The notes under the pieces are model-generated. The model did no database searches, was not told where the DNA came from, and saw only the letters and a list, made by a program, of their open reading frames with translations. From the NCBI GenBank assembly GCA_036574205.1, contig JAINCQ010000038.1:1-51179 (forward strand): 51,179 nucleotides of DNA. Direction: 5' to 3'. The position numbers and the translations under genes were made by a program. The DNA is from Elusimicrobiota bacterium. Its GTDB lineage: Bacteria > Elusimicrobiota > Elusimicrobia > Elusimicrobiales > UBA9959. This document shows, in pieces, positions 8,733 to 50,914 of the stretch. The stretch's first letter is position 1; every line of letters starts with the position of its first letter.

Positions 8733-8809
8733 TGGTCGGGGCGGTCGGATTTGAACCGACGACCTCTCGGTCCCGAACCGAGCGCTCTAGCCAGCTGAGC
8801 CACGCCCCG
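8733..8809 (-). tRNA. tRNA-Pro (CGG), CCA encoded
   Basis: CGGGGCG...CGCCCCGACCA; anticodon loop TTCGGGA. Confidence 0.97.
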
Positions 8810-8854: not shown

Positions 8855-8929
8855 TCGGGGTGGGCGGATTCGAACCGCCGATCTCTCGCACCCCAAGCGA
8901 GCGCTCTAGACCATCTGAGCCACACCCCG
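8855..8929 (-). tRNA. tRNA-Pro (GGG), CCA not encoded
   Basis: CGGGGTG...CACCCCGA; anticodon loop TTGGGGT. Confidence 0.97.
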
Positions 8930-34441: not shown

Positions 34442-35929
34442 CTAACTATTTATAATCCTCTTGCCTTCCTCAATAAGCTCATAAAGAAATTTTTGATCAT
34501 TTGACTCTGCGTATATTCTAACAACAGGCTCTGTTCCGCTTGGCCTTAGGCCAAGCCACGCCCCATTTTTAAGGATAAACTTAAAGCCATCTGTATGGTC
34601 AATTCTCCATACTGAATTACATGCTAATTTCAACGGAGGATTTTTTTTCAATCTTTCTATAATCTTACCCATATCTATATTTTCATTTATCTTAAAATTT
34701 ATGCGTTCATTATAATATTTTCCATAACTCTTTTCTACTTTACTTATTATTGAGTTTAAATTATTCCCCTCATAGGCTATCATTTCTGCTACAAGTAAAC
34801 ATGCAAGTATCCCATCTTTCTCTGGCACATGACCTGTTATTGTAAGTCCACCGGATTCCTCACCTCCTATAAGATAGCCACCTCTTCTTAACAAATCTCC
34901 TATATATTTAAAACCAACGGGAGTTTCTCTTACCTCAGTCCCATAATCCTTAGCTATAGCATCAACCATATGTGAGGTCATAACACTTCTTACAACTCCC
35001 CCTCTCATCTTTTTATTTTCAAGCAAATGATAGTAACAAAGTGAAAGAACAAGATTTGGCGAAAGCCATTTTCCATTAGATGTAATTATTCCAAATCTAT
35101 CAGCATCGCCATCTGTAGCAAGACCAACATCAGATTTATTTTTTACAACCGTATTTTTCAAAAGCAAAAGATTCTCTTCATCAGTATCAGGAGAACGTCC
35201 TCCAAAATAAACATCTCTGTTTTCTCTTATTCCTATTGAAGATATACCTGAATCTTCCAAAATCTTTCTCAAATAACTTCTTGCTGTCCCATAAACACTA
35301 TCAATCGTTATTTTTATACCAGATGATTTTATTCTTTTGAAATCAATTATCTTGTTTATTTGGTCAAAGTAATCTTTATGAAAATCAACTACCCTTATAA
35401 TCTTGCTTGAAACGGCCGTATTAAAGTCAATATATCTTTCTATAAGGGACTCTGTCATATTTAAAGCTCTGCTTTCAATATCATTTGTTATATCCACAGT
35501 CGCAGGGCCGCCCCAGAAAGGAGTCCATTTATAACCATTATATTCCGGAGGATTATGACTTGCGGTTATCGTAACTCCTCCAATAGCTCCATATTTGATA
35601 ACCATCCAGGCTATAACAGGAGTTGGCGCTTCAATATTTGAAAAAATAACATTTATGCCATGATAGGCAAATACCTCACTTACTACCTTTGCCGCCACCT
35701 CAGAAAAAAATCTCGTGTCATATCCCACAACCACAGTCGGTAAAGACGGCTTCATTTTATTTTTAGCCTTTAGATACAGTTCATACTCTTCCCCATTAAA
35801 ACCATATCTATTATTTTCCTTTATATGTAAAGCCGTCGCATGCGCGACGCAACGAAGGTTATATATATTATAATGTTCACCAATTTTTGCCCTCCAACCG
35901 GAGGTTCCAAATTTTATTAATGTAACCAT
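34442..35929 (-). CDS. Phosphoglucomutase/phosphomannomutase (start probably MVTL at 35929)
   Basis: FGTSGWR, TASHNP, DGDADR, GEESGG, RPSGTEP. Confidence 0.95.
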   Translation of the reverse strand: MVTLIKFGTSGWRAKIGEHYNIYNLRCVAHATALHIKENNRYGFNGEEYELYLKAKNKMKPSLPTVVVGYDTRFFSEVAAKVVSEVFAYHGINVIFSNIEAPTPVIAWMVIKYGAIGGVTITASHNPPEYNGYKWTPFWGGPATVDITNDIESRALNMTESLIERYIDFNTAVSSKIIRVVDFHKDYFDQINKIIDFKRIKSSGIKITIDSVYGTARSYLRKILEDSGISSIGIRENRDVYFGGRSPDTDEENLLLLKNTVVKNKSDVGLATDGDADRFGIITSNGKWLSPNLVLSLCYYHLLENKKMRGGVVRSVMTSHMVDAIAKDYGTEVRETPVGFKYIGDLLRRGGYLIGGEESGGLTITGHVPEKDGILACLLVAEMIAYEGNNLNSIISKVEKSYGKYYNERINFKINENIDMGKIIERLKKNPPLKLACNSVWRIDHTDGFKFILKNGAWLGLRPSGTEPVVRIYAESNDQKFLYELIEEGKRIINS

Positions 35930-36062
35930 AGATAAAAAATATAGCAAAAAAAAGAATAATAATCAATACATTGTAAGAACTATACATATTTTAGTGATTC
36001 TGTTTTTCAAAATTGTATTGCATATGCCCCATAGTTTTTCTATAATAACATAGAATCATTTA

Positions 36063-36100
36063 ACTCCATTCTTAAAAACAATCGTCTTTTAAAGTGGAGT
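36063..36100. terminator. Imperfect stem-loop downstream of the motor cluster
   Basis: actcca..ttaaaa..ttttaa..tggagt inverted repeat about 65 bp after the last gene; no clean U-tract on the minus strand. Confidence 0.35.
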
Positions 36101-36165
36101 CAGCTTTTTATAAATTTTATTTTTTGGGATAGTAATGATAACTTAACATTAAGTTTAAAATTTAT

Positions 36166-36873
36166 TTAAAAACCGAAAGCTTTAAATATATCATCATCAG
36201 AAGGCGATGTCTTTTCCTCTTTCTTTGTTTCTGTTTTAGGTTTTTCCTCTTTTGTCTGTGGAGGAATCTGACCGGGAAGAGTTTTCATTTTTCCAAACCC
36301 TTCCCCAACCGGCGCAACTATAACTGCCCTTATTCCTTCGGCAAATGCTAAAAATCCAGTATCAAGATTATAATACAATCTAAAAGGGGATTCTTTAATT
36401 TGAGGCTCATATGTTTTTCCAAGATTGTTTTTCTGCTGCTCCCATCCTGGATTATAAACTATCTTTCCCCTGACATCAACCTCATTGTCTATAACAGGGA
36501 GAGAAAATCTTATCTTATATATACCCATTGTATCGCTTACACCTGGCATAAAATTAAGGCTAATCATTGATGAAACATTTTCCTCTATTATATTTTCATC
36601 TTCTTTTTTTAACACATCGCTCAAAGCTTTTACAGTAACACCCTCTATGGGATTGCCATAATAATCTGTAATAACTCCCGCAATTGAACCTTCAAGAAAT
36701 ATTCCAAGCTTTGTGGTGGTAAAAAAAAGAAAATTTTTTTTGCCTATGACTTTCTTTGTTAAAGCCAAATCAGTAACACGCCCGTCTGTAAAATCAACAA
36801 CTTTTATATTGGAACTCGAAAAACATCCACTTAACAAAAAGGAGATTATTATTATAAATTTACTTTTTTTCAT
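36166..36873 (-). CDS. Lipoprotein with carboxypeptidase-regulatory-like (Cna-B-type) beta domain; overlaps motB
   Basis: Lipobox LSGC; GSIAGVITDYYGNPIEGVTV...SDTMGIYKI; charged low-complexity tail. Confidence 0.75.
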   Translation of the reverse strand: MKKSKFIIIISFLLSGCFSSSNIKVVDFTDGRVTDLALTKKVIGKKNFLFFTTTKLGIFLEGSIAGVITDYYGNPIEGVTVKALSDVLKKEDENIIEENVSSMISLNFMPGVSDTMGIYKIRFSLPVIDNEVDVRGKIVYNPGWEQQKNNLGKTYEPQIKESPFRLYYNLDTGFLAFAEGIRAVIVAPVGEGFGKMKTLPGQIPPQTKEEKPKTETKKEEKTSPSDDDIFKAFGF

Positions 36874-37498
36874 CCTTTATTTTTCCTCCAAAAGTCTTCA
36901 CAAAGAAAACCACTCTTCTATTTTTCTGCCTTCCTTCAGGAGTCGAATTCTCAGCTACAGGTCTATACTCTCCATAACCTATGGCGGAAATTCTTTTTGG
37001 ATTAAAATCATTATCAATAAGATATCTTACGACAGAGGTTGCCCTTGCTGTTGAAAGCTCCCAGTTTGAAGCAAACTGTTTTGTAAATATAGGAACATTA
37101 TCAGTATGTCCCTCTACAATTATCTCATAATCTTGAGAAAGTTTTTTCAATGCTGGAATTATTTTATCAATTGTCTGTTTTATCTCATCGGTAAGATCAG
37201 CCTTTCCACTTTCAAAAAAAGGCAATTGCCCCTGTTCTTGAAGAGTTATTCTCAAACCCTCTTTATTTATTTCAACCTGCCCGGACATCTCGCCTTTATT
37301 CATCATTTCTTTAATCTGCTGAGCAGCATTCTGAACATTTTTATTCAAAGCAGCGCTTAAAGCGTATAAAATAATAAAAAAACACACCATTTCAGTCATA
37401 AGGTCTGCGTAATTTACCATCCATGGAGGAGCGGGATGTCCTATCTGTGAAACCCTCGGGTCATCTTCGGGTATCATGTTTTTAGCTCTTACAGACAT
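36860..37498 (-). CDS. motB: Stator protein MotB (compact, 212 aa)
   Basis: WMVNYADLMT (essential Asp) TM; OmpA-like peptidoglycan-binding domain GHTDNVP, NWELSTARA, GYGEYRP, NRRV. Confidence 0.93.
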   Translation of the reverse strand: MSVRAKNMIPEDDPRVSQIGHPAPPWMVNYADLMTEMVCFFIILYALSAALNKNVQNAAQQIKEMMNKGEMSGQVEINKEGLRITLQEQGQLPFFESGKADLTDEIKQTIDKIIPALKKLSQDYEIIVEGHTDNVPIFTKQFASNWELSTARATSVVRYLIDNDFNPKRISAIGYGEYRPVAENSTPEGRQKNRRVVFFVKTFGGKIKDEKK

Positions 37499-38278
37499 TT
37501 ATTCCTCTTTCTTTATAGCCTGTCTTTTTGATGGCTCTAAATAAGCCTTAAGATTTGCTTCTACTATAGAAGGGGTTGCTCCACTTTGAAGTAAAAGAAC
37601 ACCCCTGATAATTATCTCCTTTATAAATATTTCCTCTTCAGATCTTAATTTAAGTTTTCCAGCCATAGGAAGGAAAAGCCAGTATCCAGAGCCAAGTCCG
37701 TAAAAAGCGGATGCAAGAGCCAGCGCCATTCTTCTTGGCACCTGCGCCACATCGTCTATAGTTGAAAGCATAAGTATCATTCCAAGAACTGTTCCTATTA
37801 TTCCAAATGCCGGAGCATATGTTCCAAGAGCGTTAAATATTTCCCTGCCAATTTTATGCCTTTCTCTTATAAAATCAAGTTCAGTTTCAAGCATATTCTT
37901 TATAAAATCATGATCCGCGCCATCTATAACAAGCTGTATGGCTCTTTTCATAAAATCATCATTTATATTTTTTACATCTGCCTCAAGAGCCAGGAAACCC
38001 TCTTTTTTAGCTTTTTGTGATAATGCTACAAAAGTAGAAACAAGTTTTGACGTATCTTCACCCTTTGAAGTCATTACTTTTTTCAAAACCTTCCATAAAC
38101 CTATAACCCTTGACAATGGGAAATTTACTAAAAGCGCGCAAAAAGTTCCACCCATAACAACTAAAAGAGCCTCTATATTCATAAAAGGCAGAAAACCCTT
38201 CAATCCTTCCTGAAGGTAAACTGCGCCAACAACGAAACCCATAAAAACCAGTATCCCGGTAAATGTAGCTATATCCAT
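37499..38278 (-). CDS. motA: Stator protein MotA/PomA
   Basis: MDIAT..G, LVVMGGT, KKEGFLALE, APAFGIIGTVLGMI, FYG...LFLP, G.TP. Confidence 0.94.
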   Translation of the reverse strand: MDIATFTGILVFMGFVVGAVYLQEGLKGFLPFMNIEALLVVMGGTFCALLVNFPLSRVIGLWKVLKKVMTSKGEDTSKLVSTFVALSQKAKKEGFLALEADVKNINDDFMKRAIQLVIDGADHDFIKNMLETELDFIRERHKIGREIFNALGTYAPAFGIIGTVLGMILMLSTIDDVAQVPRRMALALASAFYGLGSGYWLFLPMAGKLKLRSEEEIFIKEIIIRGVLLLQSGATPSIVEANLKAYLEPSKRQAIKKEE

Positions 38279-38286
38279 ATCTCACC

Positions 38287-38511
38287 TCATTTTTTTTCAA
38301 AACCCTCTATAGGATTTATAACCTTTCTTTCAGAATAAACTCTTTTCTTATACTCCACAACTTTTTCTATAACTAAATTTTTATCTTCTTTTACTATAAA
38401 TCTATTACCTGTAACAAGGTTTATAACAGTATCCGGAGACGATTCAACGCTTTCTATAAGCTCAGCGTTTATCACTATTTCCAGATTATTTAATTTATGC
38501 AATATTATCAT
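38287..38511 (-). CDS. flbD: FlbD/SwrD family protein (start probably MIILHK at 38511)
   Basis: MI.L.KLN....INAELIE.VE..PDTVI.L.TG..FIVKE....VIEKV.EYK; flbD-motA-motB synteny. Confidence 0.92.
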   Translation of the reverse strand: MIILHKLNNLEIVINAELIESVESSPDTVINLVTGNRFIVKEDKNLVIEKVVEYKKRVYSERKVINPIEGFEKK

Positions 38512-38536
38512 CTCTGTATAATTATACAAAAAAAGA

Positions 38537-41308
38537 TTATTTTTGTCCTTTCTTCAACTCCTCTATCTGTTTTTTTAACATTTCAATAGTTTTTTCTTTT
38601 TCTTCCCATCCTGTTACATAGGTATGAAGCTGCGCAAGAAGCTCATTATAATCTGAGTTTAAAGCATTCATGTTATTATTCAATTCCTCTATTTTCTTAT
38701 CAGCCATCTCGGATTTTGCTTTTGTCATAAAATAAGCGTTTTTAAGTTTTTCATATTCAGCTTTATACTTTTCCACAAATTGCATATATTTTGCCAGTTC
38801 CGCATTCAATCTAACTATCTCATCTTTACTGGACTGTTTATTATCATCCGACAAAGCTTGAGTTAAAAGTTTTTCATTTTCTTCCTTTAATTTATCTCTT
38901 TCCTCTATTATATTTTTAAGATCCTGAGAAAGCGACTCTATCTGCGAAGAATATTTTTCTTCAATATCAGAAATTTTCTTTTCAAAATCATCAGTTGATT
39001 TGTTTTCTAAACCTTTATTTTCAAGCCCCTTTATTTTTTCTTCCAAATCAGATATTTCTTTATTCTTATTTTCAATCTCCTTCTCATATTCAGAAACTTT
39101 TGAAGCAAGTTTTTCAGCCTCAACTCTTTTCTCGTCAAAAGATTTAATAATAGTCTCCAATTCTTCTATTTTCTTGCGGCTTTGCTCAATTTCGATTTTT
39201 AACGAAGAAATCTCATTCTCTTGATCATTAATTTTACGATCTTTCATCTCCACTTCTTTTATCTTTTCCTCATATTCTCTTCTCAGCTCACTAATTCTCA
39301 TTTCAATCTCAGACTCCATCTGCTTCTTATTTTCCTCTTGTATTTCGGCAACATTCTTCTCATAATCTTCCTTAAGTTTTTTAATTTTATCCTCATAATC
39401 TGATATAAGCTTTTGATTATCTTCTGAGTTTAAAATCATTTCCTTATATTTATTCAACTCCTCTTCATAAGCTTTTCTTATAGCAGAGTTTTCCAGATTC
39501 AACTTTTTTATCTCATCCATAAGCGCAGATATTTTTTTTGAAAGTGAGTCTTTTTCAGCCAGAAGTTTTCTATTTTCAGATTCAAGAAAAATTTTCGTTG
39601 CCACTATTTTTTTAGCCGAATCATTTGCCTTTTCAAATCTTTCATTGTAAGTTTTTTTTACAGAATTTATTATCTCATCTTTTTGTTTCAACTCTCTTAT
39701 AAGATCTTCACTTTTCTCTTTAAGAATTTCTATTTGAGATAAATTTTTTTCGTTTTCATATTTAGTTTTCTCAAGATCTTTTTCCATTACCTTATTTTTA
39801 TTTAATATATTTGCATACTCCTTTTCTATCTCTTTACTAAGTGATTCCATTTTTTTAAACCTTTCGGAAAGCATCTCTATTTCATCCTTATACTTACTTA
39901 ATTCTATTTCTTTCTTTTTTAAAGACTCGTTAAGCCTTAAATTTTCCATCTCAAGCTCACCAATTTTTTCAGAATACCTTGTTTCTACTTTATTCACCTC
40001 AGATTTAAAATTAGTCTGCAATCTTTCATTCTCAGCTTTAATTTTATCAACTTCTTTTTCCATCTCTTTATTTAACAAATCCATCTTTCTTAAGCGTTCA
40101 GATAGTATATCCAGATCACCTTTATATTTATTTAATTCTACCTCTTTCCTTTTTAAAGATTCATTAAGTGTGGAGTTTTCCAACTCCAACACGTTAACTC
40201 TTTCAGAATATCTTATTTCTACCTTATTCACCTCAGATTTAAAATTAGTCTGTAACCTTTCATTTTCAGCTTTTAATTTGAAATTTTCCTGGGAAATCTC
40301 AGATTTTAAAAGGTTTAGCTCGGATATTAAAACATCTTTTTCTCTAATAGCTTTTTCATAGTCAAACTTAATCTTTTCTATCTCTTTTTGTCTTTCAAAG
40401 ATATTTTTTTCTGTCATCTCCCCAATCTGCCTTCTTAATTCAGAGATTTCCTTTAAAAGACCATCTTCTTTCATCTTAAATTTATCCGATTCAAGATTAA
40501 ACTGAGCTTTCAAATTAGATATTTCGTTTTTTAAAACAATTATTTCTTTTTCTTTTTCCGGAATAAGTTTTATATATGTATCAAGAGAAATTCTTTCTTT
40601 CTCAAGATCATTTATTATTTTATTAAGCCGTTCAATCTCTTTAGCAGTTTGCTCTTTTTCTATAACAAACCTTTTATACTCATCTTCAATTCTACTTTTA
40701 GACTTTACCAGATCTTTTAACTTTCTTATTTCCTCATCCTTTTTTGAAATAATCTTTTGCCACTCTGCCTTTTCATCAAGGAATCTTCTTTCAAATTCCT
40801 GAAATCTCAAAACAAAATGTTCTTCAGCCTCTTTTGATGTTTTTTCTTTTTCCTGAAGCTGGGATTTTAAGGTTTGAACCCATGTTTCTCTCTCTTGAAT
40901 AAGTTTTATCTCAAGCTCTTTTATTCTGGATTTAAGAGCATTTTTTTCATCCTCTATTTCTTTTTCCCTCTGCGCTCTTTTGATTTTATCCTCTACCTCC
41001 CTTATAGAATTTTCAAGTTTTGATGCAAGAACCTCTTCCTGCTGACTTTTTATAGTAAGAGCTAAAACCTTTTCCCTTTCTTCTGCAAGACTTTTCTCAA
41101 GTTCAATAATCTTTTTTTCAAGTTTCTCCTTCTCCTCATTAATTTTTGAATAATCCTGTGTTTCTCCAATAGATGGAGTTGGTTTTGCTAAAGGCAGGGG
41201 GTTTTTAACTGGAAAAGAAGGAGACGGAAGAGGAGGTTTATTAATATTAGACTTTCCAGCCACAAATGGAGGAATAGGAGGCAAATTCTTTTTATTTAAC
41301 TCTGCCAT
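38537..41308 (-). CDS. 923-aa cytoplasmic coiled-coil protein with Pro-rich N-terminus
   Basis: Continuous K/E/L heptads; no TM, signal peptide or ATPase motif seen. Confidence 0.85.
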   Translation of the reverse strand: MAELNKKNLPPIPPFVAGKSNINKPPLPSPSFPVKNPLPLAKPTPSIGETQDYSKINEEKEKLEKKIIELEKSLAEEREKVLALTIKSQQEEVLASKLENSIREVEDKIKRAQREKEIEDEKNALKSRIKELEIKLIQERETWVQTLKSQLQEKEKTSKEAEEHFVLRFQEFERRFLDEKAEWQKIISKKDEEIRKLKDLVKSKSRIEDEYKRFVIEKEQTAKEIERLNKIINDLEKERISLDTYIKLIPEKEKEIIVLKNEISNLKAQFNLESDKFKMKEDGLLKEISELRRQIGEMTEKNIFERQKEIEKIKFDYEKAIREKDVLISELNLLKSEISQENFKLKAENERLQTNFKSEVNKVEIRYSERVNVLELENSTLNESLKRKEVELNKYKGDLDILSERLRKMDLLNKEMEKEVDKIKAENERLQTNFKSEVNKVETRYSEKIGELEMENLRLNESLKKKEIELSKYKDEIEMLSERFKKMESLSKEIEKEYANILNKNKVMEKDLEKTKYENEKNLSQIEILKEKSEDLIRELKQKDEIINSVKKTYNERFEKANDSAKKIVATKIFLESENRKLLAEKDSLSKKISALMDEIKKLNLENSAIRKAYEEELNKYKEMILNSEDNQKLISDYEDKIKKLKEDYEKNVAEIQEENKKQMESEIEMRISELRREYEEKIKEVEMKDRKINDQENEISSLKIEIEQSRKKIEELETIIKSFDEKRVEAEKLASKVSEYEKEIENKNKEISDLEEKIKGLENKGLENKSTDDFEKKISDIEEKYSSQIESLSQDLKNIIEERDKLKEENEKLLTQALSDDNKQSSKDEIVRLNAELAKYMQFVEKYKAEYEKLKNAYFMTKAKSEMADKKIEELNNNMNALNSDYNELLAQLHTYVTGWEEKEKTIEMLKKQIEELKKGQK
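39818..40279 (-). repeat. Intragenic 234-bp (78-aa) tandem duplication
   Basis: K.KAENERLQTNFKSEVNKVE.RYSE... occurs twice; cacctcagatttaaaattagtctg at 39995 and 40229. Confidence 0.85.
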
Positions 41309-41355
41309 ATAACTATATTCTAAAATTTAAGCATTTCAATAATATTAAAAAAATA

Positions 41356-43263
41356 TTACATTCCAAGTTGTCTTTTTAAATCATCAAGCCAATTTTTAAA
41401 CTCCATATCATTGGACAATTTTACATAATTATCATAAGCTGAAACAGCTTCTGCATAGTTACCAATAGAGTAATAACTTGAACCAAGATATTGCCAGGCC
41501 ACAGCGTTTTCAGGCTCGGCTTCAATAACATACCTTAGATAAGAAATAGCAGTTTCAAAGTCCTGAGAATTATATGCATCAACAGCTTTAGACATATAGT
41601 CAGATAATGAATCTTCTTGTTGAGACTGAGTTTGAGATGCTTTCTCTATTCTCTTATCACGTGCAGCAGAAGAGATATCAGATTCTATTATATATATTCC
41701 TCCTTCACTTTTTCTATAACTTGCTATTTTGCCCTCAGCCTCAAGAGTTTTAACAGTATCAACTATTTTCATCTGCGCTTCATCAATCTGTTGCTGTGTT
41801 AATTCCCCCATATACTCTATAATCTCTTTTATGGTGTTCTGAGCTCCCTGAGACATATTTCTGAAAAATTTATCTGATATTTGGGGAGAAGCGCCTTTAA
41901 GAGCTTTTGCAAGGTCTTCGTTTGAAACACTTCTTATAATAGTCTGAATATCCTTGTCACTAAAAGAAACAATGTCTTCAAAGATAAGCATTATGCTTCT
42001 TATTTTTTCATATATATCAGGTTTCTGGTTTTTTAAGTATTCAAGAACGTTTTTTCTTGTTTGTGGATCAGCCTCTTCAAGTATCTTCATTAACTGCTCC
42101 ACCCCTCCCATTACAAATTCCACACTTTCCTTCACTTCTTTATCAATAGCTTCTATCTGTTCTCTTGTAGCTTGTTTTACCTTCAAGGATTCAATAGCAA
42201 CTTTAGATTGTAGTTCAACTGGAAGCATGGCAAAAGCCTGTTTTGATATTTCTGGCTTAAGATAACTTAAAATTACCGCTATTATCCATGGGTCCTCTTT
42301 TTTAAGTAAAAAAAGATAAATAAGTTTTTTAAGATTTTCTTCATTGATGTAAGTAAAAGGCTCCAACTTCTTCATTTCTTCCTCCTCCTCTACCTCTTCT
42401 TCCTCTTTCTGGATAAAATTCATATCTATAGCCTGATGCCCTTCCTGCTTCTCTTCCCCTTCCCCTTTCCCTTCACCCTTACCGCCTTCTTCTCTTTTAT
42501 CCTCTATATTGACCTCAGCCCCAGGCTTTTCCATAATAGCTTTCAGATACCGTCTTAAAAAAGACCATAACGGTCCAAAAAGGTAAAATAAAAACAAGAG
42601 AAGCAAAATAGCATATAGAAGCGGAAGATAAACTAGAGGCTTTTTAATATCATCCCATATATTGGAAGTATTAAATTTTGTCGGTTTGAATATGACTATC
42701 GGAGGGTCTTTCCCTCCTATTTTATATGGAAGCAATAAATCATCTATTCTCTCCCTTGCTATCATAAGCAAACCCTGAGGTAATTTCTCGTCGTGTAAAA
42801 CAGTAACCTGAAACTTTGTTATTGTCGGCTCTACAGAAAATTTTACTTCTTCCACCCCAAGTGTTTGTTGTGTTTGCCTTCCATGTGCAGCCTCTGGCCT
42901 TTTATCATCTCCTAAAATATATTTAGGCTTTGGGATTCCTGGAAGAATAAAATCAGTATCTGCATAAGACTGAGAAGCGCCTTTTTCCTTATATTGCTGT
43001 AAAACCCCAACTCCCTCTTTTGACTGATCTCTTTTTTTTGTTATTATTTCAAAAAGCACATCCGCAAAAGCAAAAGCTCTGTCTTTCCCAAGCACAGGAT
43101 CCAGTATGTTATTTTTTATTTTTTCCTCTATTTCCTTTCTAAACTCATTTTGTTTTTCTATCAGGACAATATTTATATCATTTGAATATGTATTATTCTG
43201 AGAGAAAATTACTGAGATGTTAATAACCAAAAGAAAAAAGGATATTATAATACTGAACCTCAT
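41356..43263 (-). CDS. Membrane-anchored FliG-domain protein: signal peptide, FliF-C-like periplasmic domain, TM, FliG middle/C domains, TPR
   Basis: aa 1-21 signal; aa ~40-197 IEEKI..ILDPVLG...LPGIP...ITKFQVTV; TM aa ~210-235; aa ~302-513 EDPWIIAVILSYL, GG linker, MLIFED, LAKALKG, NMS, IDEAQ.KIV...LEAEGKI; aa ~555-620 TPR. Confidence 0.85.
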   Translation of the reverse strand: MRFSIIISFFLLVINISVIFSQNNTYSNDINIVLIEKQNEFRKEIEEKIKNNILDPVLGKDRAFAFADVLFEIITKKRDQSKEGVGVLQQYKEKGASQSYADTDFILPGIPKPKYILGDDKRPEAAHGRQTQQTLGVEEVKFSVEPTITKFQVTVLHDEKLPQGLLMIARERIDDLLLPYKIGGKDPPIVIFKPTKFNTSNIWDDIKKPLVYLPLLYAILLLLFLFYLFGPLWSFLRRYLKAIMEKPGAEVNIEDKREEGGKGEGKGEGEEKQEGHQAIDMNFIQKEEEEVEEEEEMKKLEPFTYINEENLKKLIYLFLLKKEDPWIIAVILSYLKPEISKQAFAMLPVELQSKVAIESLKVKQATREQIEAIDKEVKESVEFVMGGVEQLMKILEEADPQTRKNVLEYLKNQKPDIYEKIRSIMLIFEDIVSFSDKDIQTIIRSVSNEDLAKALKGASPQISDKFFRNMSQGAQNTIKEIIEYMGELTQQQIDEAQMKIVDTVKTLEAEGKIASYRKSEGGIYIIESDISSAARDKRIEKASQTQSQQEDSLSDYMSKAVDAYNSQDFETAISYLRYVIEAEPENAVAWQYLGSSYYSIGNYAEAVSAYDNYVKLSNDMEFKNWLDDLKRQLGM

Positions 43264-43330
43264 AAATATAATTTTACCTTATTAATAATTACAAAAATAT
43301 AACATAATTATTATATAAACCAAGCTAAAT

Positions 43331-44914
43331 CTATTTTATCTGTTCAAGAAATTGTTTTACTGTAATATTGTTAGGATTGATCTCAAGAACTTTTTCCCAC
43401 ATTGCTTTTGCTTTAGCTTTTTGATCCATAAGGAAGAAAGCGCTTCCCATAATCTCAAGCGCCGTCTCATTATTCGGTTCAAGATCAAGTATATCCTGCG
43501 CTCGTCTTAAAGCAACATCGTATTTCCCTTCATATATAGCCTGCCTTGCGTCATAAATTTTTTGATCTATTAATGTAAAAATCTCAGGTCCCTCGGGTCT
43601 TCTTGTAAGTTCACTCATGCCAGCTTCTTTCTCTACCATATTAAGCAGAGAAAGCAATTTGTCGTCTTTTGGATTTTTATTATAAGCATGTCTTAAAACA
43701 TTAACAGCACTTCTTAAATCTTTTCCATCAACATACGCTACTATACCCCTTCTAATAAGTGTTTGAAGTTCATCCATACCAGTTGCATTAGGTACATAAG
43801 TAATAGCTGACTGAAGTTTATCAAGCATTTGTCTTATCTCAACATTACCTGGATCTGCATCAAGAGCGCTTTTGAATTTTTCAACTGCTTTTGAAAAGTA
43901 TCCTGATTTGAAATACTGTAAAGCCTGTCTTACTATATTTCTTATTTCAGAATCATGTTTAGCCTTTGAGGAATCACCAAATCTAATCCCCACAGAAAAC
44001 TTTGTAGTGTTTCCAAGAGAATGTATTCCCTGAGCTACATCAAGGTTAACCCCTTTGTATTTAATACCTATTCCAAAACTTGCTTCCTGTATATCTGGAT
44101 TTGCCATTATGCCAAATCTAAAAGCCGCCCAATAAAGTGGATAATACTCTCCACCAAACCTCAGGTTCTGTCCCCCACCTTGAGTTTTTGTAACATCAAG
44201 ATCGAATATCAAACTTCCCTTGAAAAGACTGAAAGATTGCCCTAACTTAAAAACAAGCGGAAAATTATCGTCGGTATCGCCAGATTTCATTGAGAAAATA
44301 TTCTGGACTCCAAAAGCAAATCTATACACCTTTGACATATTATAATTTATAGCAAGATCTATTGTATTAAAAGAATCCTTTGATGTGTCTACGCTTCTTG
44401 AAACATTTTTTACAGAAACCCCAAATGCCAATTTTGAAGAAACGTTTCTCCCCCATGCCAGTCCTATCGCTCTTTCTGTTACTTCAAATGTTCCAAGACT
44501 TTCAAGGCTTACTATTTCGTTAGTATTTGGATCAACTTTTATCGCAACCTTTTCAAATCCTCCAGAATTCATCTGATCCATAAATATACCAAATGTTCCT
44601 TTTGAAGCAGTTGGTTGAACATAGCCTATAAAATTAAGGGTTGTCTGCTCAAACATCTGCGCTTGCATAAAAGAAAACTCTTTTCTTTCAACAAGCGACA
44701 AGGCTGCCGGATTCCAGTAACTTGCTGTTGCGTCATCGCTTATTGCAAAAAAAGCACCTCCCATCCCCAGGGCTCTTGCTCCAACGCCATAATTTAAAAA
44801 TGCACCTGCCTGACCACCACTTTGAGCAAACGTATCAACTGTAAATAAAAAAACCATTATAAATGCTTTTAGCAGATATAATGGTTTAATTATATATATA
44901 AATACTCTATTCAT
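43331..44914 (-). CDS. PorV/PorQ (FadL-like) outer-membrane beta-barrel protein with C-terminal TPR domains (start probably MNRVF at 44914)
   Basis: AFL.YGVGARALGMGGAF.A..DDA.A.YWNPA.L; amphipathic beta strands ending FSVGIRF; then TPRs (AVEKFKSALDADPGN, AKAMWEKVLEINPNN). Confidence 0.85.
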   Translation of the reverse strand: MNRVFIYIIKPLYLLKAFIMVFLFTVDTFAQSGGQAGAFLNYGVGARALGMGGAFFAISDDATASYWNPAALSLVERKEFSFMQAQMFEQTTLNFIGYVQPTASKGTFGIFMDQMNSGGFEKVAIKVDPNTNEIVSLESLGTFEVTERAIGLAWGRNVSSKLAFGVSVKNVSRSVDTSKDSFNTIDLAINYNMSKVYRFAFGVQNIFSMKSGDTDDNFPLVFKLGQSFSLFKGSLIFDLDVTKTQGGGQNLRFGGEYYPLYWAAFRFGIMANPDIQEASFGIGIKYKGVNLDVAQGIHSLGNTTKFSVGIRFGDSSKAKHDSEIRNIVRQALQYFKSGYFSKAVEKFKSALDADPGNVEIRQMLDKLQSAITYVPNATGMDELQTLIRRGIVAYVDGKDLRSAVNVLRHAYNKNPKDDKLLSLLNMVEKEAGMSELTRRPEGPEIFTLIDQKIYDARQAIYEGKYDVALRRAQDILDLEPNNETALEIMGSAFFLMDQKAKAKAMWEKVLEINPNNITVKQFLEQIK

Positions 44915-45000
44915 AGCTTCGGCAGCCTGACCTTCCGGTATATACCGGAATCTTTGGCTTTGCGCCCCCAAATTTCTTTGGGTTTGCTATTATCGTACTA
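44914..45000 (-). ncRNA. GEMM-I (c-di-GMP-I family) riboswitch, A20 variant (c-AMP-GMP type)
   Basis: Minus strand UAGUACGAUAAUAGCAAACCCAAA-GAAA-UUUGGGGGCGCAAAGCC...GAUUCCGGUAUAUACCGGAAGGUC-AGGCUGCCGAAGCUA: P2 with GAAA tetraloop, GCAAAGCC junction, P3, 3' UGCCGA. Confidence 0.9.
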
Positions 45001-45051
45001 TATTTGCATTACAAATATATTACGCCTGCCTTACAATGTTGTTACATTTAT

Positions 45052-45079
45052 ATTATAGCAGAAAATCTGGTTTTGTCAA
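45052..45079 (-). promoter_or_regulatory. Consensus sigma70 promoter driving the riboswitch leader
   Basis: TTGACA (45079-45074), 16 bp, TATAAT (45057-45052) with extended -10 TG. Confidence 0.75.
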
Positions 45080-45098
45080 TACCCTAATTATAGACATG

Positions 45099-48000
45099 TC
45101 AAGTATGCCTGGTTTTAAATTTATTTTTAATCCAGTTTTGTAAATTGTCCATTAGAACATAAGTTACAGGTGTCATTAAAAGCGTTATTAAAAGTGATAA
45201 AACCTGCCCTCCGATTATAACCCCGGCAAGAGACCTTCTCATACCTGCGCCTGGACCTGTTCCAAGGGCCGTGGGAATCATAGCAAAAACAAGTGTGATA
45301 GTTGTCATTAGTATGGGTCTTAATCTAGTTCTATTTGCCTCTATAATTGCTTTATGCCTATCATATCCTTTTGCACGTAGCGTATTAGTATAATCAACCT
45401 GAAGTATAGAATTCTTTTTAACTATACCAAAAAGCATAAACATTCCCATAAGAGCGAATATTGTAAGATTCGAACCTGTGATGTAAAGTGAAATCAAAGC
45501 AAAAGGGAGGGTAAGGGGCAAAATTATTATTATTGAAACAGGATAAGTAAAACTCTCAAATTGAGCTGCAAGAACTATATAAACAAAAAGAAATGCAAAG
45601 ATAAAAGCCATCAAAAAACTTTTGAGCATTCTTCCAAACTCTTTTGCCTTTCCAACAGGCTGAGCCTGATATTGAGGATTATTATTTATTTTTCTAAAAA
45701 CCTCATCACAGGTATTTAAAAGCTGGCTTAAAGAAGCTTTTCCCTCAACATTCGCATATATAGATATTTTTCGCTGCCTGTTAAACCTGTCTATCTGAGT
45801 TGGTCCATATCCCGCTTCTATATCACTAACAGCATCTAACCTTACAACCTTGTTTACTGAAGAAGGAACAACCAAAGATTTTATAACCTGAGGCGAGTTT
45901 CTCCATTTTTCTTCAGCTCTCACTTTAACTTCATATAATTCGTCCCCCTCTTTATATTTTGTGACGCTTTCCTGCCCTGAAACAAAATTCCTGATTGTAT
46001 TTGCGATATCCTCAATTTTAACTCCTAACTTATGAGCCCTGTCTCTATCAATTATTATTTTATACTCCGGCTTTGCATTCGAAAAACTTGTATCAAGATC
46101 AACTACGCCATCGATTTTCTTAAGTTCGGATATTAAACTGTTAGCATAGCCTTGAAGAATGTTTAAATCTGAACCCATTACAACATACTCCATTTCATAA
46201 TTCTTCATTCCAGATATGCTCCCCTGTCCACCTACTATAACTGATGTTCTCAATCCTTCATATTTAGAAAGCATTTTTCTAACTTTAGCCATAATTTTTT
46301 CAAGGCTTTCTTTTCTTTCATTAACCCCGACAATTTCAAAAAATATATATCCTTCGTTTTTATTTGAAATACCGCTTTGAGAAATTCCGATATTTACAAG
46401 GGTTTTTGTTATATATGGAACATTATTTTTTATCTCAGATTCTATCTGAAAAATTAATTTCTTCATAATTTCAAGGTTTGTTCCTTCTTTCGCGGCAATA
46501 TTAACCTGAAACATAGAGGTATCATCAACTGGAAGGAAATTTTTTCCAATAAACTTAATCATAAAAAAAGTCATAATCATTAAAATCAATGAAGAAACTA
46601 CCATAAATTTTATATGGGAAAGTGCATAACTAAGTATCTTTATATAATATGACGCAAGAGTTTCGTTTAATCTTTCAGCAAATAATCTAAATTTTGTTTC
46701 TTTAAGTTTTCTTAACAATAACCCTGAATAACTTGGCGTTATGGTTAAAGCTACTAATGTAGATATAGCAATGGAATAAGCAAGGGTCAGTCCAAAACTT
46801 TTCATAAATCTTCCAACCATACCAGACATATAAGCAAGCGGAACAAATATTGCAAGAAGAGATATAGATATTGCAAGAACTGCAAATCCTATTTCCCTTG
46901 AACCGCTTATTGCGGCATCAAGAGATGATGTGTTTTCTTGTTCAAGATGTCTGTGTATGTTTTCAATCATAACAATAGCATCATCAATTACAAGCCCAAC
47001 TCCAACAACAAGTGCAAGAAGAGTTATGTTATTTAATGTAAAACCACTTATCTCCATAAGTGAAAATGATCCTATAACAGAAACAGGAATCGCAATAGCA
47101 GATATAATTGTGCTTCTTAAATCTCCGATAAATAAAAGTATTACAAGCGAAGCAAGTAAAGCACCTAAAACTAAATGCTCTTTTACAGCGTTTAAAGAAC
47201 CATTAATAAAAACACTTTGATCTCCTACTATCTCAACCTTCATATCAGGTGGTAAAATTTTTTTTATTTCATTAAGTTTTTCTTTTATATTTTCTATAAC
47301 TTTGACTGTGTTTGTTCCAGACTGTTTTTTAATAACAAGCGTAACCGCTGGTTTCCCATTTAAATATGAAATATTTTTAATATCCTCACCAGTATCTTTA
47401 ATACTTCCTATGTCCTTTAATTTTATTAAAGCTCCATTATAAGATGTAATTAAAATATCATTGAAATCACTAACCTTTTTAACCCTTCCCATCGTTCTTA
47501 AAACAAAATCCATATCCATCTGCTCTACATTCCCGCCCGGAACTTCCACATTCTGCTGTCTTATAGAATCAATAACCTGCTTAACAGTAATTTGATACGC
47601 CTGCATTTTTAAAGGATCTAAAATGACATGTATCTCCCTGTTTCTTCCACCAACTATATCCACAGAACCGACACCGTTTACTGTTTCAAGCATCTCTTTA
47701 ATTCTTTTTTTCACAGTTTCAGTAAGATTTACTATATCTCTATCTCCGGAAACAGCTATATTTATTATTGGCATTGCTCCAAAATCTACTTTGCTTACTA
47801 CTGGCGGATCCGTCCCTTGAGGAAGTTGTGAAAGTATTGCGTTAACCTTATCCCTTACCTCCTGAGCGGCGATATCCGGATCCCTATCCAGATCGAATTT
47901 TATCATAACAAGGCTCATTCCTTCATAGCTTGTTGAAGCTAAATCTTCTATTCCGTTAATTGTGTTTACAGCCTCCTCTATAACCTTTGTAACTGATGAT

Positions 48001-49072: not shown

Positions 49073-50914
49073 TTAAAGACCTATTGTATAATCAAGATTT
49101 ATAACGGAGATTATATAATCATAAACTGCAGTCAAATACCCCAATCTTGCTGCATTATAAGCAACTGTAGCATCATTTATTTCAAGCTGACTTGCAAGTC
49201 CGTTTTTAAATCTTTCTTCTGTGGCTTTTAAAACCTTTTCGGCATTTTCAACAGAAACCTTTTGACTCTCAATTCTCTTTTCCGCCTCTTCAATAGCAAA
49301 AAGTGATTCCATAATCTCTATTTTAATTTTTCTTTTTATATCTTCTATATTCCTTTCGGCTAACTCAAGATTGTATTCTGCCTGTTTAATTTTTGAAACC
49401 GTTGAAAAACCGTTAAATATAGGCATATTAAAAGAAAGGCCAATAGCAGAACTCCAACCTCTTGTGTTTTCATCCGGAAATTTAGATGTTTCGCTTTGAC
49501 CTGAAAACTGTTTTGAAGCAAATAAACTTATTGTAGGCCAGTGTCCCGCTTTTTCTATTTTTAACTGTTTTTCCGCCATATCTTTGTTTAAAAGGGATAA
49601 TTTATAATCAGGTCTGTTTAAAAGAGCAGTTTTATAAAGTTCTTCAAAAGAATATTTTTTATAATTATAATCAAGTTTTCCAACAATATTTATCTCCTCG
49701 TCTAACTCAAATCCAAGCAGGTTTTTTAAATTCAACACCCCTGTTTTATATAGATTTTCCGCTTTTATAAGAGCAGGTTCATTATTTGAAACCTCAACCT
49801 TCTGTCTTAAAACATTTAGATCGCTTTGAAGACCCTGTTTGTATTTTTCCTCAACCGTCAAAAGATGTTCTTTTGAAATATTTAAAATATCGGTTTGAAG
49901 TTTTAAAAGCTCCTTTGCATACAAAATTGAATAAAAAATTTGCTTCACAGATTTTTTGATAATGTTTTTAATCTGCTTTGTATTTTCAACTGAAATATTA
50001 CTATATATACGAGCCATCTTTATTGCAGTATCAACCTTCCCACCAGCCCATACAACCTGATTTAAATTTAAACCCATTGTATAAACATTCTCCATCCCAA
50101 CTTCCGTTTTTCTTCCCCCAAAAAACGCAAGCGGTTTTTCAATATTTTTTGTATAATTTGCTGAAACTGAAATCTGAGGCCAGGCCGAACCATAATATTC
50201 ATTTATCTTCTCTTTATAAATCCGCTCAGATGTATAAGCATTTAAAACTGAAATATTTTTCTTAAAAGCAATCTCAACTGCTTCATCTACATTTAAATCC
50301 ATAGCCCAAAAATTGAAAGAGAAAAACATTATAATAAAAAAAACACCAAGCCCTTTAATAAAAACATCAATCAACCTGTAAATGCTTTTCATATCCACTT
50401 TTCCACTCATTTTGATTTCAAATATTAAATAAGATATTAAAGACGATATAAATATTGAAATAACTTCTGCAGTATCACTGCCAATCTTTTTACCTTTTAG
50501 ATAAAGATTTTCTACAGCTGCTTTAATTTTAGTCTTATTCTTCTCCCTCACATCCTCAGCCATTTTTCTTAAATAATCCCTTTTCCCAAAATCTATCATT
50601 TTAAAAAAACAATTAACATGAAGTGCATTTTTTGAAAAAAACATATAATGTTTATCAATAATTGCTCTTATAAATTCACTTAACTCACCAAAGGTCTTCA
50701 AATCATTAAATATAGATTCAATCTCTTTTTTCTTTAAATTAAACGCATATTTTACCATCTCATCTTTATCTTTAAAATAATAATATATCACTGGTTTAGT
50801 GACCCCAAGCTTTTTTGCTATATCATCCATTGAAACAGCATCCATACCAGATTGTGAAAACAACTCAACCGCCGTTTCAACTATCTTTTCTCTGGTTATT
50901 TTTTTTGTTTTCAT
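49073..50914 (-). CDS. In-frame fusion of a TetR/AcrR regulator and a TolC-family outer-membrane factor, joined by an internal signal-peptide-like segment
   Basis: aa 1-50 TetR HTH (IAKKLGVTKPVIYYYFKDK); aa ~186-204 KGLGVFFIIMFFSFNFWA; aa 205-613 two OEP repeats (WPQIS, WPTIS, PIFNGF, RFKNGLAS). Confidence 0.88.
   Translation of the reverse strand: MKTKKITREKIVETAVELFSQSGMDAVSMDDIAKKLGVTKPVIYYYFKDKDEMVKYAFNLKKKEIESIFNDLKTFGELSEFIRAIIDKHYMFFSKNALHVNCFFKMIDFGKRDYLRKMAEDVREKNKTKIKAAVENLYLKGKKIGSDTAEVISIFISSLISYLIFEIKMSGKVDMKSIYRLIDVFIKGLGVFFIIMFFSFNFWAMDLNVDEAVEIAFKKNISVLNAYTSERIYKEKINEYYGSAWPQISVSANYTKNIEKPLAFFGGRKTEVGMENVYTMGLNLNQVVWAGGKVDTAIKMARIYSNISVENTKQIKNIIKKSVKQIFYSILYAKELLKLQTDILNISKEHLLTVEEKYKQGLQSDLNVLRQKVEVSNNEPALIKAENLYKTGVLNLKNLLGFELDEEINIVGKLDYNYKKYSFEELYKTALLNRPDYKLSLLNKDMAEKQLKIEKAGHWPTISLFASKQFSGQSETSKFPDENTRGWSSAIGLSFNMPIFNGFSTVSKIKQAEYNLELAERNIEDIKRKIKIEIMESLFAIEEAEKRIESQKVSVENAEKVLKATEERFKNGLASQLEINDATVAYNAARLGYLTAVYDYIISVINLDYTIGL

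Follow-up and report, generated by a model that had tools for sequence, protein, structure and literature searches.

A GEMM-I riboswitch with A at position 20 heads a barrel gene and a motor-like gene cluster in an Elusimicrobiota bacterium

We have analyzed a stretch of 51,179 nucleotides (nt), called here the window, which is contig JAINCQ010000038.1 of assembly GCA_036574205.1, from an Elusimicrobiota bacterium (Elusimicrobia; Elusimicrobiales; UBA9959). The genome which carries it (G000) has 1.85 Mb in 43 contigs, with 31.4% GC, and is 95% complete. The window contains a GEMM-I riboswitch aptamer (c-di-GMP-I family, for cyclic di-GMP), a promoter, a gene for an outer-membrane beta-barrel protein and a cluster of motor-like genes, all of them on the minus strand. 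The aptamer adds one more member to a well-known class; the unusual part is its expression platform, which lies inside the open reading frame (ORF) of the barrel gene. Taken as a whole, our best explanation, which we hold with slightly better than even confidence, is a GEMM-I switch with c-di-GMP as ligand, which would turn the genes off by closing helix P1 over the start codon and by termination of transcription within the ORF.

A complete GEMM-I aptamer had been claimed at 44914-45000 in an earlier note on this DNA, made from the sequence alone. The covariance model bears this out. When the whole window is compared with Rfam (cmscan), the single match is c-di-GMP-I (RF01051) at 44998..44918, with 62.2 bits (the gathering score is 35), an E-value of 7.1e-10 and coverage of model positions 1-87 of 87. 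The same match is recovered in a search of the whole genome. The note had proposed looking for further copies: no second GEMM-I match was found in G000, and no match to the c-di-GMP-II riboswitch either. Helix P2 is found at 44982-44967, with a GAAA loop at 44976-44973, and P3 at 44959-44924. The isolated RNA, 97 nt long, has a predicted energy of -31.1 kcal/mol, with z = -4.05 relative to 200 shuffles. Covariation in P2 and P3 is extensive among the 44 orthologs described below: 18 pairs, 11 of them with compensatory changes, and 98.6% of cells paired, a value not reached by any of 500 shuffles, while slid registers are only 30-56% paired. Docking of the GNRA loop of P2 on a receptor in P3 is known as the type 1 architecture. 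The GAAA loop is present in this RNA, but the positions of the tetraloop receptor in P3 (CUAA...AuG) are deleted in the model alignment. Since the score is still 27 bits above threshold, this receptor is not obligatory for RF01051. Judging from its sequence, the aptamer is almost certainly a working GEMM-I riboswitch.

The base at 44988 corresponds to G20 of Vc2, the aptamer from Vibrio cholerae, which recognizes the alpha base of the ligand. It is an A, preceded by U19, in the context CGAUAAUA-GCAAACC. The RF01051 alignment places it at model position 11, unpaired before GCAAAC, where the consensus is G, and thus confirms the A that the earlier note had read there. The note had also stated that the equivalents of A47 and C92 are kept, and both match the consensus: junction GCAAAGCC at 44963-44956 holds the intercalating A, equivalent to A47, and the C equivalent to C92 is found at 44921, inside an invariant CCGAA which is part of the UGCCGAA end. 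In Vc2, C92 is the Watson-Crick partner of the beta G of the ligand; for the roles of the contact nucleotides we follow PMC6140456 and PMC5888326. All these ligand-contact columns (base 20, A47 of GCAAAGCC and C92 in CCGA) are invariant across the 44 orthologs.

The switch is conserved together with the genes which follow it. We have searched 100 relatives for GEMM-I. Within the same family, 48 of 60 genomes have a match, as against none of 38 from a second family and both genomes of a third one. A total of 117 matches were retrieved, 44 of which are orthologous copies, linked to the barrel gene, in the same family. In all 44, A20 follows an invariant ACGAUAAU, and an ATG in frame with the barrel ORF is found 3-7 nt past CCGAA. 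Orthologs of the FliG-like gene of the cluster (E < 1e-170) are present in 45 genomes, G000 included. In 42 of these 45, a GEMM-I aptamer lies 1.7-2.3 kb upstream of this gene, in the same contig and strand. The exceptions are G043, where the gene is at the end of a contig, G062, with switch and barrel on another contig, and G059, which has none. G008 contains a fragment with the switch.

The same unit exists in sister families which belong to the same class, with the GEMM-I aptamer again abutting the ATG of the barrel gene. Gene order was confirmed in four genomes by tblastn, with either the seven-gene set or the genes up to the end of the contig. Base 20 is not constant here. Among eight sister-family genomes, the switch linked to the barrel or operon has G in five (G143, G161, G199, G205 and G159), and the barrel-linked switch has A in three (G148, G152 and G062); the barrel link is through a protein motif only in G148, G159 and G062. 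A single family, f6, holds both G20 and A20 switches.

The earlier note had assigned the aptamer to the type which binds 3',3'-cGAMP (cyclic GMP-AMP). According to this, the RNA would be a GEMM-Ib switch selective for 3',3'-cGAMP, made by a Hypr GGDEF enzyme or another synthase, and a Geobacter-like pathway would control the motor cluster. The label finds no support in the cyclase searches, in the G20 orthologs or in the published affinities of A20 aptamers, and we regard this possibility as quite improbable. Hypr enzymes are defined by having GGDEF together with Ser, in place of Asp, at the position which recognizes the base (PMC6456294). The note had suggested looking for them in the genome: all five GGDEF-type domains of G000 have Asp (two GGEEF, one GGDEI and two divergent GGDDF). 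The same is true for 30 of 30 domains in five relatives with the same A20 switch, two of which are 100% complete, so that 35 of 35 domains have Asp in the six switch-bearing genomes combined. We have also searched the DNA of 71 genomes of the family for the pattern ND..GH..G, followed either by a Ser/Thr-type codon or by Asp. The Asp version matches 68 of the 71 genomes, about three times each. The Ser/Thr version gives three matches in them, all in junk frames of 38-74 amino acids, none of them real. When extended to 121 genomes of the class, this pattern finds one real protein with Ser and GGDEF, in G257, so it is able to detect such enzymes; nothing was found with it in the A20 genomes G148 and G152. 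The G257 protein (L208, G257:C243; DIDHFKTYNDSQGHELGS ... GGDEF) belongs to a different family of the class and is a possible Hypr-type enzyme.

Other synthases were not found in G000 either, neither SMODS (PF18144) nor DncV-like (PF21654) nucleotidyltransferases, with the limit that the positive control for PF21654 was silent in 14 of 14 control genomes. On the other hand, G000 has five GGDEF domains, three HD_5 domains of the HD-GYP type and one PilZ, therefore a c-di-GMP circuit exists in this genome. No EAL domain was found in G000.

Published affinities, and the mixture of bases in sister families, point in the same direction. Wild-type Vc2, with G20, has a dissociation constant of 10 uM for cGAMP and a picomolar one for c-di-GMP; with the G20A change the values are 53 nM for c-di-GMP and 120 nM for cGAMP. 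Cbe 1-2, a natural A20 aptamer, has 30 nM for c-di-GMP and 463 nM for cGAMP. These A20 aptamers are either bispecific or prefer c-di-GMP, so A20 is insufficient by itself for cGAMP selectivity (all from PMC6140456). The earlier note's own caveat, that some A20 aptamers bind c-di-GMP, agrees with these data. G20, which discriminates against cGAMP, is found on the same operon in five of the eight sister-family genomes, and f6 is mixed. A cGAMP annotation should not be derived from A20, because G20 and A20 alternate on the same operon and no cGAMP synthase was found. The physiological ligand is quite likely c-di-GMP. Most simply, c-di-GMP would be the signal for the operon in all cases, with A20 serving to adjust affinity or kinetics. 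Rather than being dedicated to cGAMP, the variant present here would most likely bind with lower affinity or be bispecific.

Nevertheless, some facts count against c-di-GMP as the ligand. A20 is strict in the 44 orthologs and is found in 103 of the 117 GEMM-I copies of relatives, an enrichment which recalls Geobacter, whose cGAMP-selective aptamers have A instead of G20 (PMC6140456, PMC6456294). By comparison, G20 predominates among the best-hit GEMM-I loci from other parts of the phylum (19 of 25 examined). Such a lineage-wide excess implies selection for A, and affinity tuning is the sole explanation that we can offer for it. HD-GYP-type domains are also among the points that a cGAMP pathway could claim. 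Besides, the cyclase searches cover known families only, in a genome which is 95% complete. There is thus a slight chance that U19-A20 has been retained for another messenger, either 3',3'-cGAMP or some other purine dinucleotide, made by an unrecognised synthase in an orphan pathway.

Conserved REC proteins with a divergent GGDDF palm domain are candidates for such a synthase. Two response regulators with a divergent GGDEF-like domain are found in G000, at C19:101333-103012 and C8:64615-65604. Their motifs are NPLTKLPG..., FKAYNDVYG[FY]..GD and GHIGGDDF, and their match to Pfam is limited to the first ~110 of 161 positions. Each of six genomes inspected has at least two copies of these REC-GGDDF proteins.

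The expression of the barrel gene may be understood from the sequences which surround the aptamer. A consensus promoter had been noticed upstream of it, and we find there a sigma-70-type promoter at 45052..45079, with 12 of 12 consensus matches: TTGACA at 45079-45074 (-35) and TATAAT at 45057-45052 (-10), separated by a spacer of 16 nt, with a TG at 45060-45059 before the -10 hexamer. No other 12/12 promoter is present in 35800-45150. When the orthologs are aligned, the layout TTGACA...TGCTATAAT recurs in them at a constant distance. We infer that transcription starts near 45045. The leader (45045-44999) contains GUAA(C/U) motifs at intervals of about 10 nt; G000 has four of them, two of which are conserved across orthologs. 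The leader is also predicted to form a hairpin, UAUAUUUG-UAAUG-CAAAUAUA (44999..45019), which appears in the minimum free energy structure whether the aptamer is enforced or not. The 3' arm of this hairpin shares bases with the 5' strand of P1, which makes it a possible anti-P1 element. In 44 orthologs, this P1 strand pairs inside the leader with a median probability of 0.66, and with at least 0.6 in 28 of them.

The barrel ATG, at 44914, is found 3 nt past the aptamer. Other genes in the window are preceded by a GGAGG-like Shine-Dalgarno sequence, while none is found within reach of this ATG. The two strands of the predicted P1 helix are UAUAGU (44997..45002) and GCUAUG (44912..44917), which includes the barrel ATG (44914-44912); they come from an anchored register and from duplex prediction. 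We have anchored the flanks at both aptamer ends, comparing base -k before ACGAUAAU with base +k past CCGAA. In this register 192 of 280 cells are paired, as against 75-123 in shifted registers. Pairs 1-4 are present in 30-34 of 35 distinct sequences, and helix length is 4-7 base pairs. Two pairs covary, UAGU/ACUA in some sequences and UGUU/AACA in others. In 40 of the 49 sequences compared, the best duplex between the flanks extends over the AUG. The AUG of these 40 is part of the 3' strand of P1 or adjoins it, and should therefore be occluded when the ligand stabilises P1. A different closing helix, AUAGC/GCUAU, is predicted for the isolated G000 RNA, but it cannot form in other orthologs and was not adopted.

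A second element is found downstream of the start codon. It resembles an intrinsic terminator and extends over 44843..44887, approximately codons 10-24 of the barrel ORF. In G000 it consists of hairpin AAACCAUUAUA...UAUAAUGGUUU (44887-44851, -14.8 kcal/mol), followed by U7AUUU. Across orthologs, the hairpin and its U-tract are found 65-117 nt past the aptamer, within the first ~35 codons. With a hairpin of -12 kcal/mol or lower and a U-tract at +40..+130 required, the element is detected in 40 of 44 orthologs, compared with 5 of 200 control windows located deeper in the same ORFs. The sequence of the arms varies between genera and complementarity is retained, so that both arms covary. Codon usage also carries a footprint of this element. 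In 17 GC-rich orthologs, whose ORF body has 63% GC, TTT amounts to 57% of Phe codons within codons 1-45 and to 8% within codons 61-420; the values for ATT among Ile codons are 59% in the early part and 6% in the body. That GC-rich relatives maintain the U-tract by means of rare codons, TTT and ATT, argues for selection on RNA at this site. The barrel protein has a signal peptide with an unusually long n-region, and terminator and codon footprint together suggest that this n-region doubles as RNA structure.

The mechanism that we propose joins these elements. Without ligand, the leader hairpin would sequester the 5' strand of P1, leaving the AUG exposed for ribosomes to load; the leading ribosome would then melt the terminator within the ORF, and the operon would be transcribed. 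With c-di-GMP bound, P1 would close across the AUG and block the initiation of translation. The untranslated leader could then fold the terminator, and transcription would end before the body of the barrel gene and the motor genes. On this model, OFF is the polarity that we consider reasonably probable.

The opposite polarity, in which c-di-GMP would free the AUG or prevent the terminator, thus inducing a surface or adhesion apparatus, seems to us unlikely. Both polarities are known in GEMM-I switches, for example ON in pilM and OFF in Cd1 (PMC9262584). An ON switch might make use of a local hairpin, UAUGAAUA/UAUUUAUA, which also pairs the AUG in G000 and competes with P1. This hairpin is not conserved in GC-rich orthologs, where hairpin H1 begins past the AUG, and the P1 3' strand which contains or abuts the AUG is conserved in most sequences, as described above. 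A PorV-like barrel with TPR could serve in adhesion or secretion, processes which are usually induced by c-di-GMP. Against an ON switch, no antiterminator tied to the state of the aptamer was found when ten leaders were folded with RNAfold, with and without the aptamer enforced.

It could also be thought that c-di-GMP is sensed at the level of translation only, the terminator being something unrelated: a constitutive attenuator, an element for the stability of the mRNA or a by-product of the signal peptide. Two observations suit this idea. Similar sites with hairpin and U-tract, which may arise by chance, are found in 69 of 1005 long ORFs of the AT-rich genome G000, and the terminator forms in silico whatever the state of the aptamer. 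Against it stand a terminator which is found in the same place in 40 of 44 orthologs with different arms, and the rare codons which maintain its U-tract in GC-rich relatives. We find this alternative very unlikely.

The proposed OFF mechanism, with P1 over the AUG and termination in the ORF, has its own weak points. P1 is short and AU-rich, with a median duplex energy of -4.5 kcal/mol, and 26 of 1000 flank shuffles equal the observed pairing. P1 rests on register and covariation, not on energy, because only 7 of 49 duplexes beat 95% of shuffles. The U-tract is degenerate in six genomes (G004, G015, G011, G048, G006 and G027). In the ten leaders folded, the terminator appears in nearly all cases, with the aptamer enforced or not, and so the link between aptamer and terminator rests on the idea of ribosome coupling. 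A pairing between GCGCAAAGC in the aptamer and GCUUUUGCC downstream was seen by eye in GC-rich orthologs; it has no counterpart in G000 and was dropped.

The gene which follows the aptamer (43331..44914) codes for a protein of 527 amino acids, an outer-membrane beta-barrel of the PorV/PorQ family with TPR at its C-terminal end. It matches NCBIfam NF033709 with 114.6 bits (the cut-off is 90) and Pfam TPR, with weak matches to FadL and UPF0164. The six genes downstream form a block (36166..43263), with successive gaps of 67, 47, 7, 8, 0 and -14 nt, counted from the barrel gene. The first one (41356-43263) codes for a protein with FliG_M, FliG_C and TPR domains, preceded by an N-terminal region of ~300 amino acids without domain assignment. 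It is followed by genes for a coiled-coil protein of 923 amino acids (38537-41308), FlbD (38287-38529), MotA (37499-38278), MotB/OmpA (36860-37498) and an uncharacterised protein of 235 amino acids (36166-36873).

The earlier note placed the aptamer at the head of the barrel gene and the motor cluster, and the conserved seven-gene set found directly downstream agrees with it. The control of the barrel gene by a cyclic dinucleotide, which the note had also proposed, appears well founded, given the aptamer, the promoter and their position. The downstream genes probably constitute an operon under the riboswitch. That the riboswitch controls the whole cluster is plausible, since there is only one strong promoter, the gaps are short and gene order is conserved.

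This cluster probably does not belong to a flagellum, because there is no match for FHIPEP (FlhA) in the G000 genome. When the FliG-like protein was used as a query outside the lineage, a single distant locus was obtained, from an Elusimicrobia metagenome-assembled genome (L036), with 29% identity. This locus has no Rfam match. We have found no paper which combines Elusimicrobia, riboswitch and c-di-GMP. In the literature on FliG, MotA and non-flagellar systems, Elusimicrobia are not named among the top matches listed. A search by terms in an mBio 2025 paper on MotAB finds no mention of FlbD, riboswitch or Elusimicrobia.

Other GEMM-I copies are found in relatives. A second class (L008, L018, L026, L030, L034, L066, L068, L070, L072 and others) has a different platform: The 3' end of the aptamer, GCCGAAGACA, has its complement in UGUCUUCGGC, which is part of a conserved terminator, GGCCGUUUCGGC...GCCGAAGCGGCC-U-run. 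Both A20 and G20 occur in this class, which precedes unrelated genes. We had considered an argument based on G20 and A20 copies before the same downstream gene in this second class, and dropped it, as the downstream genes differ; the orthologs linked to the barrel gene provide this comparison in its place. A genome of the same genus, G001, has a second GEMM-I (L062, G001:C6:230717-230796, minus strand), with G20, an ATG 4 nt past the aptamer and a hairpin with U-run ~130 nt downstream; it has no counterpart in G000. In several other GEMM-I copies from the taxonomic class of G000 which are not linked to a barrel gene (L191, L193, L194, L197, L199 and L200), an ATG is found 1-5 nt past CCGAA. 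Designs with the start codon in P1 seem to be common in the phylum.

The window has other features, apart from the switch and its cluster. An ORF of 613 amino acids at 49073-50914, minus strand, upstream of HlyD and AcrB, codes for an N-terminal TetR_N and a C-terminal TolC-like OEP. It may be either an odd fusion or the result of a missed frameshift or start. The tRNA genes at 283-356, 8736-8809 and 8855-8929 have 59-69% GC, compared with 31% in the genome. This high GC content fits a thermophile. The only sequencing run listed for the stretch, a DNA run which may be its source, is labelled as a hot-spring metagenome; no RNA run was listed for it.

In summary, three features of this system are less ordinary than the aptamer itself: the alternation of G20 and A20 in one orthologous switch, the terminator within an ORF, with its codon footprint, and the link to a non-flagellar set of FliG, MotAB and PorV-like proteins. 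Each of them may be of use in further work. The switch of the same operon has G20 or A20 depending on the lineage, which provides a natural experiment for the study of riboswitch specificity. An AUG in P1, together with a terminator in the codons of the signal peptide, opens ribosome-coupled termination by a GEMM-I switch to direct tests. An uncharacterised machine, with FliG-like, FlbD, MotA, MotB and PorV-like components, would be tied to cyclic-dinucleotide control in bacteria which apparently lack flagella. This suggests a surface or motility decision as a functional lead for the machine, and the riboswitch provides a handle to study it. Should another messenger be involved after all, an orphan dinucleotide pathway would control a non-flagellar FliG/MotAB machine in Elusimicrobiota.

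We have compared this switch with known GEMM-I systems. The GEMM-Ib switches of Geobacter (Gs1761/pgcA, Gm0970, pilM) share with it A20 and a lineage-wide excess of A20. They turn transcription ON, and their ligand is supplied by the Hypr GGDEF enzyme GacA, with Ser348 (PMC6456294). In contrast to Geobacter, no known cGAMP synthase was found here and the orthologs alternate between A20 and G20, in a comparison made by description only. Cbe 1-2, from Clostridium beijerinckii, and the G20A variant of Vc2 have A20 and bind c-di-GMP with nanomolar affinity through a protonated adenine (PMC6140456). By analogy, the present RNA is expected to bind c-di-GMP in the same way, although Cbe 1-2 comes from another organism and has another expression platform.

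Cd1, from Clostridioides difficile, heads the flgB flagellar operon, which is turned off by c-di-GMP through premature termination (PMC9262584). The present system resembles it in having GEMM-I at the head of a multi-gene operon of the motility type, and in the OFF logic that we propose. In Cd1 the terminator and antiterminator are located in the 5' untranslated region, whereas here the terminator is part of the coding region, and we have found no antiterminator. The Cd1 operon is flagellar, while the operon described here is probably not, as there is no FHIPEP/FlhA in G000. Finally, Vc2 belongs to the same RF01051 family and shares the GNRA loop of P2, helix P3, the GCAAAC and GCAAAGCC junctions and the CCGA 3' end. 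It is a translational OFF switch which acts through a ligand-dependent P1 (PMC9262584), the same logic that we propose for the Elusimicrobiota switch. The latter differs from Vc2 in its A20, in a P3 without tetraloop receptor, in a start codon which lies within P1 and in a terminator located inside the ORF.

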